Assembly: GCA_963767115.1 (NCBI GenBank)
Contig: CAVYCR010000005.1
Span: 89,582-153,581, forward strand
DNA length: 64,000 bases
Reading direction: 5' to 3'
From: Candidatus Kaiserbacteria bacterium
GTDB lineage: Bacteria; Patescibacteriota; Minisyncoccia; Phycocordibacterales; UBA2100
Shown: in pieces, positions 5,947 to 10,408 of the stretch
How positions within the stretch are numbered: position 1 is the first letter of the stretch
Layout of the letters: the number at the start of each line of letters is the position of its first letter
Translations under genes and position numbers: made by a program
The notes under the pieces: model-generated
What the model saw: the letters and a program-made list of their open reading frames with translations, nothing else
Databases searched by the model: none
Told to the model about the DNA's origin: nothing

Positions 5947-7166
5947 TTAGAACGTCCCGGCGATCTGGTAGATCGGCAAGAGGACTGCCGCGAGCAAGAC
6001 GCCGACGCCGACGGCGAGAAAGACGATCATCACCGGCTCGATGAGACCGACAAGTGTATCGATCGCGTTGTCGACCTCGCGCCGATAGAAGCGGGAAATG
6101 GTCTCAAGGATGACGCCCATGTTGCCCGTCTCCTCGCCTATCTTTACCATCGCGACGATGATCCCGGGCATCTCCGGATGTTTGCGCAGTGCCTCGCTGA
6201 GCGGCATGCCGCCCTTCACGTCGACACCCGCGTCAGCGAGCACCTGCATGTAGATCGGGTCGCCCACGACGGCGCCCGTGATCTCTATCGCACGCAGGAT
6301 CTGAATACCGCTCTTGAGCATTGTGGAAAGGTTGTCGGCGATGCGCGAGAGGAAAATCTTCTTGTAGATGCCGCCGATGATCGGCATCTGCAGGCGCGCA
6401 CGCGAAAGTACCTGGCGGCCGCTTTCTGTCTGTGAATATCGATAGAGGAAGAAAGCGCCGACGAAGGTCATAATAATGATCAAGAGGATGTATTGGCGCA
6501 CAAACTCCGACGTACCGATCACGATCTGCGTGGTGATGGGCGGCTTCTGTCCGGCCGTGGTGATCATGCTGGCAAGGTTCGGGATGACGATCGTCATCAT
6601 GAGTGTCATGACCACGACGAACGTGAATATAATGAACGCCGGATAGATCAGAGCATTGCGAGCTTTCTGGATGATTTCGTAGTTACGGTCGAGGTACGAG
6701 GCAAGGTAGGTGAATGTCTCGTCGAGCTTGCCGCTCTCTTCGCCGGCGCGCACCATGTTGACATAAAAGTCCGAAAACATTTCCGGATGGTGCGACATAG
6801 CCACCGAGATCGAGGAGCCGGACTGGATCTCGTTGCCTACGTCGTTGAGCTTCTCGGCGACTAAGGGCGTGCGTGCTTCCTCGGCAAGCAAGCGAAATGC
6901 GCGCAATGCCGAGACCTGTGCCTCAAAGAGCGTCGTCATCTGACGCGAGATCATCACGATATCTTCGTTGGTGACGCGGTCGAAAAAGAGATGCGGCCCG
7001 AAAGGACGCCGCTTGCACCCTTCTTCTCTCCCACCGGCTCGATCTTGGAGATCACCAAGCCGCGATGCTGCAGCGCCGAGATCGCGAGGTCGACGTTGAC
7101 CGCGTCGATAGTGCCTTCACGCTCATGCGCTTCGCTGTCGAGTGCTGTGTAGGAAAAGACGGCCAT
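5947..7166 (-). pseudogene. pilC: type IV pilus platform protein PilC/GspF, split by one frameshift
   Basis: ORFs 6954-7166 and 5947-6957 are the N- and C-parts of one GspF-family protein. The frames rejoin if the A5 run at 6983-6987 is A6 (..GRISFFDRVTNEDIVMISRQ..). Confidence 0.85.
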
Positions 7167-7184
7167 AGATCAGTGCTCAGGAAA

Positions 7185-8249
7185 TCAGATGAGTTTGTTG
7201 AGCGTGGTCGGGTTGAGCGAATACTGATAGGCAGTCTCCGCTGTGATCTCGCCACGCGCCACGAGGTCTGCAAGAGAGTGGTTGAAGTCGATCATGCCTT
7301 CGGTCGAGCTCGTCTCGATCACCACGTCGATCTCTTTGGTGCGGCTCTCGCGAATGAGGTTCCCCACTGCGTTGTTGTTGATCAAGAGCTCACAAGCCGG
7401 GATCAGCCCGCCGGAGATACGCGGCAACAAACGCTGGCTGAAAATACCCGCAAGCGAGGACGACGAGCTGGATGCGGATCTGGTCTTGTTGGCCGGCCGG
7501 AAAGGCATCGATGATACGGTCGATGGTCTGCGAAGCATTGTTGGTATGGAGTGTAGAGAAGACCAAGTGGCCGGTCTCGGCGGCGGTAACGGCAGCCGAC
7601 ATCGTCTCGTGGCCCGCGCATTTCGCCTACAAGTATCACGTCGATGTCTTCGCGGAAAGCGGCGTTGAGCGCCGACTCGAAGCTCTTGGTGTCGATACCG
7701 ACTTCGCGCTGGTCGATGAGGGATTGTTTGTGTCTCAAAAAGGTATTCGATAGGGTCTTCGATCGTGACGATGTGCTCCATGCGCTCAGTGTTGATCGCT
7801 TCGATAAGCGATGCGAGCGTCGTGGTCTTCCCCTGGCCTACCGGTCCCACGACGAGGAAAAAGCCTTGCGCGCGTCGCGCGAAGCTGATGAGTGTCTCAG
7901 GCAAGCCGAGCTCTGCGATCGTGCGAATCTTCTTCGGAATCACGCGCAGCGCGATAGCGATCGTGCCGCGCTGATAGAAAGCGTTGCCGCGGAATCGTGA
8001 GCCCTCTTCGCCTTCATAGGCGAAGTCGATCTCCTGGTCGACCTTGAATTTTTCCATCCGCTCCTTGGAAATGAGCGCGCGCAAAAAGCCTTCAAGATCC
8101 TCGGGGGTCAAGACTGGCTCCTTGAGCATCGGCATAAGGTTGCTACTGACACGGATGGTCGGGTGAATGCCTGCCGAGAAATGCAAATCGGAAGCACCCT
8201 CATGCACGAGCACGTTGATATATTTTTTGAGAATCTGAGGATAGTCCAT
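7185..8249 (-). pseudogene. pilT: twitching-motility ATPase PilT, three internal +1 frameshifts
   Basis: Walker A GPVGQGKTTT is in the main frame. The conserved blocks KQSLIDQREVG..VGEMRG and [17 protein letters not shown] lie in the other two frames (ORFs 7403-7738 and 7390-7602). Confidence 0.85.
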
Positions 8250-8263
8250 AGATCAAGTATGCC

Positions 8264-8674
8264 TTATGCTTTGGAGTTTTTCCCGATTTCTTCAGCGATG
8301 ATGTTGACAACTTCTGAGGGAATCTTGCTTGCCTTCACGACGAATGCTCTCGCGCCCAAGCTATGCGCGCGAGCGCGTTCACTATCTTCCATCTGGTTGG
8401 TGAGCGCGATGAGAGCTGCATGCGGCACGAGCTTCTCATCGCGTATTGCCTCGAGAAGCGCAAAGCCGTCACGCTCGGGCATGATGAGATCGAAGACAAC
8501 TGCATCGGCCTCGAATCCCCCGCGGAGCATTTCGATTGCCTCATTGACCGAGAGGCATCCATGCGCAGTGAAACCCTCCTTCGCGAATTTCATCGCATAC
8601 ATGTCAAGAAGAAATTTGTCATCGTCGACCAAGAGCACGTTGCCTCTGTTTTTCGGATGTATTGAATCAGGCAT
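8264..8674 (-). CDS. single-domain response regulator (CheY-like receiver)
   Basis: [26 protein letters not shown] pattern. The ORF is intact. Confidence 0.85.
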
Positions 8675-8677
8675 AGG

Positions 8678-10408
8678 TTATTGCGCGGGTACGGCGGCGG
8701 GCGGAGGGATAGTTGCCTCCGTATCATCTGCTTGCAGCATCATGCTCGAAAGGCTGGACACTTCCGAATACGGGATCTTTTTGTCCATCGCCTTGAGGAT
8801 AGCGTCCTCGCGCATAGTGAGCATGCCTTGGCTGCGCGCAGCGGTCCAAATCTTCGACTCGACCGGGTTATCGAGCACGATCTTCTCGATTTCTGCCGAC
8901 ATCTCGAGCACTTCAAAGACTGCCATGCGGCCGCGCATACCCGTCGGGACAGGTCGAGGTCTTCTCAGGCTCGTATACCATATCCGGGATCGGAAACCGG
9001 TACTTCTCAGGGAGCGTCTTGAGCTGCGTTTCGATGTCGCGCTTCTCGCTCGGAGTGAGCTGCGTCTGTTCGCCCGTGCCCGTGCAGAGTGTTCGCACGA
9101 GACGTTGCGCGATCGAAATGATCAAGACCGGCGGGATGAGATACGGCTCGACGCCCATGTCGATGAGACGCGATATCGTGCCGACCGCGTCGTTGGTGTG
9201 GATGGTCGAGAGCACCAGGTGGCCGGTGAGCGCCGCCTGGAACGCAAGTTGCGCCGTCTCCTTGTCGCGGATCTCGCCGACCATGATGACGTCGGGGTCT
9301 TGGCGCAATGTCGTGCGCAAGCCCTGTCGCGAACGTGTAGCCGATCTCGGGCCGCATCTGCGACTGCGTGACGCCGTCGACGTAATATTCGATCGGATCT
9401 TCGAGCGAGAGCACGTTTTTCTTCTCGCGGTCGATCTCGGTGAGCATCGAATAGAGCGTCGTCGATTTGCCGGAGCCGGTCGGGCCGGAGATGAGGATGA
9501 GGCCGTGCGGCTGCTTGACGGCTTGCGCATGAGCTCGAGGTTGCGGTCGGTGAGGCCTGATCTGGTCGAGCGGAATGAAGCCCTGATCGCGGTCGAGGAT
9601 ACGTATCACGACCTTCTCGCCGCTATAGGTCGGGAAGGTCGAGACACGGAAGTCGATCTCGCGGCCGTCGATCGAGGCCGAGAAGCGGCCGTCCTGCGGC
9701 TTGCGCTGCTCGTCGAGGCGGATCGAGGCGAGGACTTTCATGCGCGCGACGAGCGCGCGATGCGTATTGAGGCGGCAAGATGACGCTCGTATGCAAATCG
9801 CCGTCGACGCGGTAGCGCACGCGCACGCCGTGTGGTGCGGCTCGATGTGGATGTCGGATGCCTTGCCGTCGATCGCATAACGCAGGATGGTCGAGACGAT
9901 CTTGATCGTCGGCGCGTCTTCTTGAATATTGCCGCCGTCGATGTTCTTGGCTTTGCGAGAGTGCGGGGTCATCGAGGTCGAGGAGCGGCTCTTCCCCGTC
10001 GTTTGCCGTAGGCTTTGTCTGCTTTTGCGCCTGCACGTCTTGTTCGACTTGGAGCTCAGAGACCGCACGATCAACTTCGCCGGTAAGTCCGCGATACATC
10101 TTGAGTACCTTATCGAAATCTATCTGCGTGATCCGAAACACTTTGAAGGGCATCCCCGTCGCACGCGCAATGAAATTCAGCGCATCTATTCCTTCGAGGT
10201 TGTCCGGGTCGACCATGCCGATCTCCAAGACGCCGTCGACAACCGCAAGCGGCGCTATCTTATAGTGTTCGGCACTCTCTTCAGGCACATAGCGCAGCAC
10301 GTCGTACGCCACCTTCTGCTGCTCGTCGAGCGTTCGCGTCGGTACCTGGAAGACCGGCTCCTCAAACGTGAGTGGTTTAGCAGCTTGACCTTTCACTTCC
10401 GTTGCCAT
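8678..10408 (-). pseudogene. pilB: type IV pilus assembly ATPase PilB/GspE, about 7 frameshifts
   Basis: GspE blocks are scattered over three frames (ORFs 9623-10408, 9007-10074, 8913-9530, 8678-8938). They include [52 protein letters not shown] and [14 protein letters not shown]. Confidence 0.85.

Follow-up and report, generated by a model that had tools for sequence, protein, structure and literature searches.

Eleven single-base events that break the reading frame (8 insertions, 3 deletions) lie between positions 6983 and 9956 of the window, a 64,000-nucleotide stretch of a Candidatus Kaiserbacteria genome. They interrupt the type IV pilus genes pilB (7 events), pilT (3) and pilC (1). On the sequence evidence the frameshifts probably arose as errors of consensus building or polishing, at a place where two alleles or populations had been merged, and pilB, pilT and pilC are most probably intact in the organism. 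The events were placed by alignment to two independent contigs (L001 and L002); the whole comparison set comprised Logan contigs L001, L002, L003 and L013 of run ERR11630394, an independent assembly of the same population. These contigs encode intact PilB (575 aa when joined, with its frame unbroken in L002 and L001), PilT (353 aa) and PilC (406 aa). Read literally, the window would describe a CPR bacterium without both pilus motors and the platform protein, which would bear on episymbiont attachment, movement and DNA uptake. The evidence indicates that this loss is not real, and the three gene calls are therefore unfit for metabolic or lifestyle inference, or for pseudogene counts, from this genome.

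The type IV pilus operon in the window is an ordinary one for a Candidatus Kaiserbacteria/Paceibacterota (CPR) bacterium, with genes in the order pilM-N/O/P-like genes, pilB, receiver, pilT, pilC, then pilins and pilD, with the Pfam domains MshEN, T2SSE, T2SSF, Response_reg, N_methyl and Peptidase_A24. ORF listing and translations, Pfam, and tblastn with intact reference proteins place all three broken genes on the minus strand, as follows.

8678 to 10408, minus strand: pilB, type IV pilus assembly ATPase (MshEN N-domain and T2SSE ATPase), with seven single-base events and a net shift of +3.
8264 to 8674, minus strand: receiver, a single-domain response regulator between pilB and pilT, intact, with one synonymous SNP relative to the Logan contig.
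7185 to 8249, minus strand: pilT, retraction ATPase (T2SSE), with +1 insertions at 7732, 7615 and 7464; its 354-aa ORF stays open.
5947 to 7166, minus strand: pilC, platform protein (2 x T2SSF), split near 6984 by one T lost from a T6 run, its first 61 codons off-frame.

The pilB reading frames run -1/-2/-1/-2/-3/-1 in the window, with seven frame changes. The fragments match PF05157 and PF00437, and reference-guided reconstruction yields 575 aa without an internal stop, with the Walker A (GPTGSGKST), Asp box/Walker B and His box of a PilB-type ATPase, 79% identical to annotated PilB. In pilT about 89 central codons are out of frame, including the Walker B/Asp-box/His-box region; the N-terminal 172 aa match T2SSE, and to find the central motifs one has to turn to two other frames. 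Reconstructed PilT is 98% identical to the intact protein (P0121) and 80% to annotated PilT. PF00482 matches twice in the 336-aa pilC fragment, and the intact 406-aa PilC on L001 consists of T2SSF_N and T2SSF.

The eleven events, in the direction of transcription, are these.

9956, minus strand: +G (CTC[G]CAA) in pilB, unlike both neighbors; alternatively a hidden TCC/TCG synonymous SNP.
9832 to 9847, minus strand: 1-base deletion near 9843 in pilB, its exact position ambiguous within a dense multi-nucleotide difference (GAACCCTCACCAAAC vs GAGCCGCACCACAC).
9773, minus strand: +G (GCC[G]CCT) in pilB; alternatively a hidden CCC/CCG SNP.
9556 to 9557, minus strand: +1 in pilB at an AA->GG double difference (ATCA-ACC vs ATCAGGCC); the intended codon is likely GGC (Gly).
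9523 to 9529, minus strand: complex event in pilB, net shift -1, at a multi-nucleotide difference (CATCCGCGC-CGCC vs CAT--GCGCAAGCC).
9318, minus strand: +G (CTT[G]CGC) in pilB; alternatively a hidden CTT/CTG SNP.
8945, minus strand: +G (CCC[G]ACG) in pilB; alternatively a hidden CCC/CCG SNP.
7732, minus strand: +C (GAGA[C]ACA) in pilT.
7613 to 7615, minus strand: +G in pilT at an AA->GG double difference (CGC-AACC vs CGCGGGCC); the intended residue is Gly.
7464, minus strand: +G (CTC[G]TCG) in pilT; alternatively a hidden CTC/CTG SNP.
6983 to 6987, minus strand: -T, the pilC frameshift, a T5 run vs T6 in the Logan contig; the sole event in a homopolymer of at least 5.

G accounts for seven of the eight inserted bases (on one strand), and six of the eight differ from both neighbors; a random +1 error would also differ from both neighbors about half the time. 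Homopolymers of at least 5 host only 1 of the 11 events, and four events fall directly on multi-nucleotide differences. Glycine, the residue intended at the two AA->GG sites, is that of 106 of 120 homologues in PilB and of 101 of 119 in PilT.

The first-pass annotation had reported 13 indels in 64 kb, eleven of them within about 3 kb of pilC, pilT and pilB. Base-level alignment places those eleven, in genes that ORFs, Pfam and tblastn show as broken; the other two were not found, and no further frameshift was located outside the zone among the overlapping same-strand ORF pairs checked. ORF overlaps at 989-3789, 47776-49811 and 61413-62370, considered as frameshift candidates, were rejected as start-codon extensions or separate genes. 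As the annotation had said, reading frames are unbroken in the remaining pilus genes (pilins, PilD and PilM/N/O-like genes) and in the long ORFs, which comprise the Type ISP R-M gene, the RND pump, a 598-aa ORF and a 443-aa recombinase. It had argued that the local error rate would destroy such ORFs; with 11 events in every 3 kb, the chance of an intact 3.1-kb ORF is about 1e-5, which puts the clustering far outside chance. The receiver is intact as described, its protein identical to the Logan copy. Its being spared has little weight as an argument, because about 1.35 events are expected in its 411 bp at the zone rate and P(0) is about 0.26; the absence of events there is by itself no significant result.

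The zone is a substitution hot zone as much as an indel hot zone, a point that the earlier reading missed. Relative to the Logan contigs, differences are distributed as follows.

6814 to 10152, unstranded: divergence patch of about 3.3 kb, with all 74 SNPs and all 11 indels.
10153 to 14109, unstranded: upstream flank (pilB 5' end, 116-, 209- and 249-aa genes, pilM and the next gene), 100% identical to L002.
5685 to 6813, unstranded: downstream flank (most of pilC and intergenic sequence), 100% identical to L001.

The Logan contigs are 100% identical to the window over 2947-4338, 5685-6813, 10153-14109 and 18763-24465, save one replaced intergenic patch; that patch aside, the approximately 12 kb compared outside 6814-10152 holds no SNP and no indel error. 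Within the patch the SNPs form short clusters, at a density of about 5% in the pilB ATPase core and about 1% in pilT, with one SNP in the receiver and two in pilC. The SNP-bearing codons sit in the conserved ATPase cores, and the more variable N-termini and the receiver are nearly free of SNPs, a placement inverted relative to that of an orthologous divergent tract. Both independent contigs have a terminus within the Walker-B motif of pilB (9273-9282), which suggests branching of the assembly graph there.

The SNPs in the patch look selection-filtered. Those in pilB fall 16:5:39 by codon position, with an NG86 dN/dS of 0.16, far from the value near 1 of a decayed pseudogene, and no nonsense mutations were found. 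Amino acid changes in the patch are conservative or match the family consensus (in PilT they are S/T, I/L, V/I and N/G), and with the indels taken out, all 1,334 codons read through without an internal stop. Against 119-120 homologues, only the intact allele deviates from consensus at 14 sites and only the window allele at 3, the opposite of what a decayed copy would give. Substitutions counted from the intact allele are AT>GC in 42 cases vs GC>AT in 15. The nearest relative locus (L014) matches the intact allele at 21 SNPs and the window allele at 28, and with a third-position identity of 39% it is too diverged at synonymous sites to polarize them.

The frameshifts coincide with a patch of a second allele and the independent assembly is intact, and for these reasons an artefact is more likely than gene decay; the errors co-localize with the polymorphic patch and are absent from the clonal flanks. 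Since the rest of the compared sequence has no indel errors, general long-read noise drops out as an explanation, and the cause has to be one specific to this locus. We propose that the 3.3-kb patch is a mix of two sequence populations, brought together during contig building or polishing, from which the consensus errors would have arisen. One would be the native allele, recovered intact by the independent assembler. The other, contributed by a co-occurring strain or a close relative, would be somewhat richer in GC and closer to the family type, and its reads would have been drawn in chiefly over the conserved ATPase cores. Where the two are mixed, the aligner or polisher may have kept the bases of both alleles in tandem (a SNP "hidden inside an insertion"), giving +1 events, and may have mis-resolved multi-nucleotide differences; alternatively, the patch may have been called from too few minor-haplotype reads. 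At five isolated insertions the inserted base and its neighbor are compatible with being the two alleles of one synonymous SNP at a third codon position, with a chance compatibility of about 0.4-0.5 per site. This reading needs five C/T->G third-position changes, a class that makes up only 15% of the visible SNPs, and for that reason it may be wrong for some sites.

Comparable behavior of strain-collapsed long-read and metagenome consensus sequences (Flye/Racon/Medaka, with the bias of a SNP hidden inside an insertion) is documented (PMC3443046; PMC8302730). The window shares with these the confinement of indels to a polymorphic patch, an intact independent assembly, inserted bases readable as the alternate allele beside the reference base, and errors at multi-nucleotide differences. 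It differs in that the rest of the contig is error-free over the 12 kb compared, and in the strong G bias of its insertions, which is not known as a signature. Flye collapses strains about 98.7% identical, and separated haplotypes of low coverage gain indel frameshifts (PMC8302730). The first-pass annotation had offered a local consensus artefact as one explanation, by collapse of strain variants or of paralogous pilB/pilT copies. Strain-variant collapse fits the indels lying on the SNP patch and the intact independent contigs, whereas paralogue collapse is unsupported within the window, where tblastn shows no extra pilB or pilT copy and only a distant pilB-pilT cross-match.

Within the probability given to an artefact we count a particular form of it, by itself improbable, in which a real and intact minor-strain haplotype was threaded into the contig and called from very few noisy long reads and the indels are residual read errors. 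Its insertion-dominated spectrum would resemble that of single-molecule read errors (12% insertions vs 2% deletions; PMC3443046), the frameshifts would follow from the lower coverage of separated haplotypes (PMC8302730), and six isolated insertions have no SNP within 6-40 nt. Less easily explained by it are the G on one strand at 7 of 8 inserted bases, the four events exactly on multi-nucleotide differences, and pilC, which has an indel yet only two SNPs. Functional frameshifting, by which phase-variable contingency loci or programmed ribosomal frameshifts would keep the motors expressed, is scarcely credible. The net +3 in both pilB and pilT does return their 3' ends to the original frame, but two genes would both reach a net of 0 mod 3 by chance with a probability of about 1/9, the shifted pilB frames contain stops, and the scrambled pilT segment removes catalytic motifs. 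Indels at phase-variable loci lie in homopolymers or short tandem repeats; here a repeat tract lies at only 1 of 11 sites (the T5/T6 of pilC), and on inspection the eleven contexts hold no slippery heptamer or common motif.

We consider it unlikely that these are real strain-specific pseudogenes, in a subpopulation with a mosaic pilB-pilT-pilC allele that was recombined from a relative, bears 11 true frameshifts and has lost extension and retraction with the structural genes kept. The SNP haplotype looks like a real, coherent allele, the affected genes all belong to a single functional module, a length of about 3 kb is normal for a recombination tract, and the lack of frameshifted products in the protein collection would fit pseudogene flagging in the deposited genome. 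Spontaneous bacterial mutation, however, gives substitutions and indels at about 10:1 (e.g., in E. coli mutation-accumulation studies), against the 11 indels here to at most about 15 unselected substitutions (pilB has 5 SNPs at codon position 2). Genes dead long enough to gain 11 frameshifts should carry many random substitutions; those in the window do not, and zero divergence in the flanks leaves no time for neutral decay. Natural decay of motility and pilus genes occurs in host-restricted or laboratory-adapted bacteria, and the frameshifting of several genes of one apparatus is common to it and the window. None of the marks of such decay is seen in the window genes, neither a bias toward deletions and AT nor slippage in homopolymers, nonsense mutations or a dN/dS near 1. 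Insertions outnumber deletions here, G is favored and runs are mostly spared, an indel spectrum opposite to natural bacterial mutation. Nor are the lesions reproduced in the independent contigs from the same population. The selective decay of pilus motors put forward earlier thus finds no support, given the low dN/dS, the lack of stops, the consensus-like residues, the unnatural indel spectrum and the intact independent assembly. Somewhat less probable again is that the frameshifts are real because a recombinant pilB-pilT-pilC allele in a subpopulation was hit by a localized insertion-prone mutational burst, which might come, e.g., from error-prone repair of heteroduplex with diverged incoming DNA. 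If true, pilus extension and retraction would be off while the pilins and alignment complex persist, and an episymbiotic CPR bacterium would be polymorphic for pilus dynamics at the level of the population.

Two other causes were rejected. Methylation-motif basecalling error would not suit events that share no motif, with no errors elsewhere in the compared sequence. DGR/reverse-transcriptase mutagenesis fails because the patch substitutions are not adenine-specific; the window does contain a DGR.

Exact look-ups in the protein collection found none of the frameshifted products on record (pilT 354 aa, pilC 336 aa, pilB 261-aa fragment), and the 355-aa pilB fragment, used as a homology query, had no match above 77% identity, hence no near-identical PilB. 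The frameshifted allele thus finds no independent confirmation in that collection. Protein homology searches did not find the second allele in intact form, the PilT cluster having a single member. A 41-mer from the receiver gene had 0 matches in the genome-contig and metagenome-contig collections, so no sister genome was found at the DNA level. A window-specific 41-mer at the pilB His box has exact matches in Myxococcales and other contigs. A foreign Myxococcales tract was rejected, as surrounding identity is 67-72% and several window-specific bases disagree with those loci; the match reflects GC-rich codons on an invariant peptide.

Mosaic alleles formed by homologous recombination are known in naturally competent bacteria, e.g., in penA/pbp and pil genes. 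They share with the window a patch of about 3.3 kb with up to 5% divergence, mostly synonymous, between 100% identical flanks. Real mosaics keep the reading frame, whereas the window patch has 11 frameshifts, and the window SNPs avoid the less conserved segments. A frameshift cluster on a patch of synonymous SNPs inside otherwise identical sequence is, more generally, a useful diagnostic of merged alleles, not decay. Type IV pilus operons of other CPR/Patescibacteria (Kaiserbacteria and Paceibacterota) have the same gene order, including the small receiver between pilB and pilT, found in the same position in the relative L014. Window PilB and PilT are 79-80% identical to many Kaiserbacteria/Paceibacterota proteins, and the motor and platform genes, frameshifted in the window, are intact in these relatives as in the Logan contigs.

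Translations and Pfam matches place a type IV pilus cluster on the minus strand of the window at 2.3-13.3 kb.

Genes of the type IV pilus cluster
12186-13340, minus strand: PilM-like gene
11409-12158, 10772-11401 and 10418-10768, minus strand: three small PilN/O/P-like genes
8678-10408, minus strand: pilB
8264-8674, minus strand: single-domain receiver gene, between pilB and pilT
7185-8249, minus strand: pilT
5947-7166, minus strand: pilC
After pilC in cluster order, minus strand: several pilins with N-methylation motifs
2989-3789, minus strand: prepilin peptidase PilD

These genes are ordinary PilB/GspE, PilT and PilC/GspF family members, in a pilus operon typical of CPR bacteria. 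The top PilB and PilT homologues show 79-80% identity, and the named ones are from Candidatus Kaiserbacteria, Paceibacterota or Parcubacteria. In the locus of a JGI relative (L014) the genes are intact and in the identical order pilM-...-pilB-receiver-pilT; an embedded receiver is therefore normal for this operon type.

In the window, by translation and Pfam matches, pilB is spread across three reading frames, pilC is broken into two pieces, and pilT has an open 354-aa ORF whose middle part is correct only in the two other frames. Searching for exact matches to the proteins of the intact receiver and of the 116-aa gene retrieved two short Logan contigs of the same population (L001 and L002, run ERR11630394). 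Base-by-base alignment of the window to these located 11 frame-changing events, the same number of single-nucleotide indels that had been counted in the three genes from the sequence alone. Two further indels claimed outside the zone were not located, the overlapping ORF pairs tested being start-codon extensions.

Frame-changing events, window relative to L001/L002
pilB (seven): +G 9956; -1 near 9843; +G 9773; +1 at 9557; net -1 at 9524-9529; +G 9318; +G 8945
pilT (three): +C 7732; +G 7615; +G 7464
pilC (one): one T missing from the run 6983-6987

Insertions outnumber deletions 8:3, and the net shift is +3 in both pilB and pilT. The inserted base is G on the coding strand in seven of the eight insertions; six are unlike either neighbouring base and thus are not slippage duplications, and only the pilC event involves a homopolymer of at least 5. 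Four events fall exactly on multi-nucleotide differences between the two versions (AA/GG at 9557 and 7615, a dense block at 9832-9847, and GCC/AAG at 9523-9529). For five isolated insertions, the pair formed by the added base and the one beside it would fit the two alleles of a third-position SNP that is synonymous (TCC/TCG, CCC/CCG, CTT/CTG, CCC/CCG, CTC/CTG). Since chance compatibility is ~0.4-0.5 per site and the implied SNP class makes up only 15% of visible SNPs, this hidden-SNP reading is suggestive, not proven. The receiver inside the zone is intact, as had been noted, but this has no significance alone (P ~0.26 of seeing none in 411 bp, given the local event rate).

Four Logan contigs (L001, L002, L003 and L013) allowed comparison of 15.5 kb of the window. 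Identity is 100% over 2947-4338, 5685-6813, 10153-14109 and 18763-24465, save a replaced intergenic patch at 19237-19387. All 74 SNPs and all 11 indels in the compared sequence lie within 6814-10152; the indel zone is also the sole substitution zone. SNP density peaks at ~5% in the pilB ATPase core and is ~1% in pilT, with one SNP in the receiver and two in pilC. The Logan contigs code for intact PilT (353 aa), PilC (406 aa) and, with contigs joined, PilB (575 aa). L001 and L002 break at 9273-9282, one ending and the other beginning at most 10 bp apart inside the pilB Walker-B/Asp-box motif, which suggests assembly-graph branching in that sample at the most conserved part of pilB. Only one other difference was found, the 19237-19387 patch, which is flanked by a DUF5666 gene and a gene for an ECF-type sigma factor; it differs in structure from L003 (~150 bp in the window vs ~100 bp) and carries a repeated CTTCATGCCA-like element.

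We compared the window version with its indels removed (allele B) with the Logan version (allele A). The pilB SNPs are distributed 16:5:39 over codon positions, with dS 0.10, dN 0.016 and a ratio of 0.16; PilT has seven to eight replacements, of the kind S/T, I/L, V/I and N/G; and allele B has no internal stops in pilB, pilT or pilC. Where the alleles differ, B mostly has the majority residue of 119-120 homologues (PilT L132 117/119, I167 117/119, G212 101/119, I268 116/119; PilB R438 118/120, E479 112/120, G284 106/120). In columns with a majority above 60%, A alone deviates at 14 sites and B alone at 3, and 69 lineage-specific deviations are common to both. B is GC-biased relative to A (42 AT>GC vs 15 GC>AT). 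Codons that carry SNPs belong to the conserved ATPase cores (pilB 151-480, pilT 110-301), and almost no SNPs occur in the receiver or in the N-termini, which are more variable. Given the low dN/dS, mild replacements, lack of stops and majority residues, allele B is of functional, family-typical and non-decayed type, patchy where homology to relatives peaks. At conserved positions the intact Logan allele carries residues that few or none of ~120 homologues share (PilT I132, V167, N212, V268; PilB K438, Q479, N284), reflecting either unusual motor evolution in the lineage or a window allele pulled toward the family consensus. At the pilB His box (~9190-9230), 41 nt of the window allele are identical to pilB of Myxococcales and other unrelated contigs (L004-L012); a transferred tract was rejected, flanking identity being just 67-72% and the match attributable to GC-rich codons on an invariant peptide.

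Of the two explanations offered in the first-pass annotation, a local consensus artefact from collapsed strain variants is favoured: the indels coincide with the sole SNP zone, which has the character of a known type of assembly error and not of a biological feature. Most likely, reads of two populations were merged when the contig was called across the patch. The sources would be native allele A and allele B, the latter contributed by a close relative or another strain in the sample, whose reads would be recruited chiefly in conserved segments; insertions accepted with the reference base retained would give +1 events whose inserted base is unlike its neighbours. Branching of the graph at this locus is hinted at by the contig breaks in the Walker-B motif. 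Strain-oblivious assemblers collapse strains ~98.7% identical, and low-coverage haplotypes pick up indel frameshifts (PMC8302730). In a variant of this scheme, the patch would be a genuine minority haplotype whose sequence was called from a very small number of noisy reads.

The other explanation, genuine recent decay of the pilus motor genes, is unlikely. Spontaneous bacterial mutation favours substitutions about ten-fold over indels, the latter being mostly slippage in runs, with a deletion bias and a GC>AT bias. A gene with 7-11 frameshifts should therefore hold ~100 substitutions that escaped selection, with many radical or nonsense changes among them; the distribution over codon positions leaves room for at most ~15, stops are lacking and the residues are better conserved than those of intact allele A. 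Synonymous divergence of the flanks is zero over ~5 kb, so neutral decay at this site has had no time to occur. Genuine pseudogenes confined to one strain, on an allele gained by recombination, are improbable given the same undiverged flanks, the absence of stops, and residues better conserved than in allele A. Exact look-ups gave no record of the frameshifted products, as would also be expected had an annotation pipeline flagged real pseudogenes; intact allele B was found nowhere, the cluster of the intact Logan PilT (P0121) having one member and PilB no near-identical matches. A subpopulation with real, localised, insertion-prone inactivation of its pilus motors is less probable still. Phase variation or programmed frameshifting is essentially excluded, being contradicted by the sequence contexts of the indels and by the stop codons that pilB shows in its shifted frames.

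Large ORFs elsewhere are unbroken, as first reported: a Type ISP restriction-modification gene (39786-42914), an AcrB-type RND gene (56698-59784), a 598-aa ORF and a 443-aa serine recombinase (51974-53305). The exact products of intact ORFs 43085-44881, 56698-59784, 35369-36751 and 30188-31069 have no record in the gene-position collection, and products from 2.9-22.3 kb are on record along with a 50-200 kb contig; either strain specificity of the window's second half or a different calling of gene starts may account for this. Low-GC islands (37000-39200, 53300-54600 and 14100-14700; GC 0.39-0.45, GC3 0.29-0.40, vs ~53% GC for the genome) probably represent horizontally acquired DNA or regions of defence genes. 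Nearby are an IS1595-family transposase (14922-15590), the Type ISP gene and two adjacent N6/N4 DNA methyltransferases (47776-49811). A 460-aa reverse transcriptase (RVT_1; 35369-36751, minus strand) adjoins a 318-aa 'Recombinase + Zn-ribbon' ORF (34391-35347, plus strand) without the N-terminal resolvase domain of the 443-aa recombinase; this ORF may represent a serine recombinase that has been truncated or disrupted, within a mobile region. A diversity-generating retroelement, with another reverse transcriptase, occupies 44949-47417 on the minus strand. In its repeat core all mismatches are at template adenines, among them AA>TT, AA>CG and A>G.

Parts of the diversity-generating retroelement
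44949-45989, minus strand: reverse transcriptase (RVT_1)
~46329-46446, minus strand: template repeat
~46766-46883, minus strand: variable repeat, at the 3′ end of the target ORF
46758-47417, minus strand: 219-aa target ORF, no Pfam match
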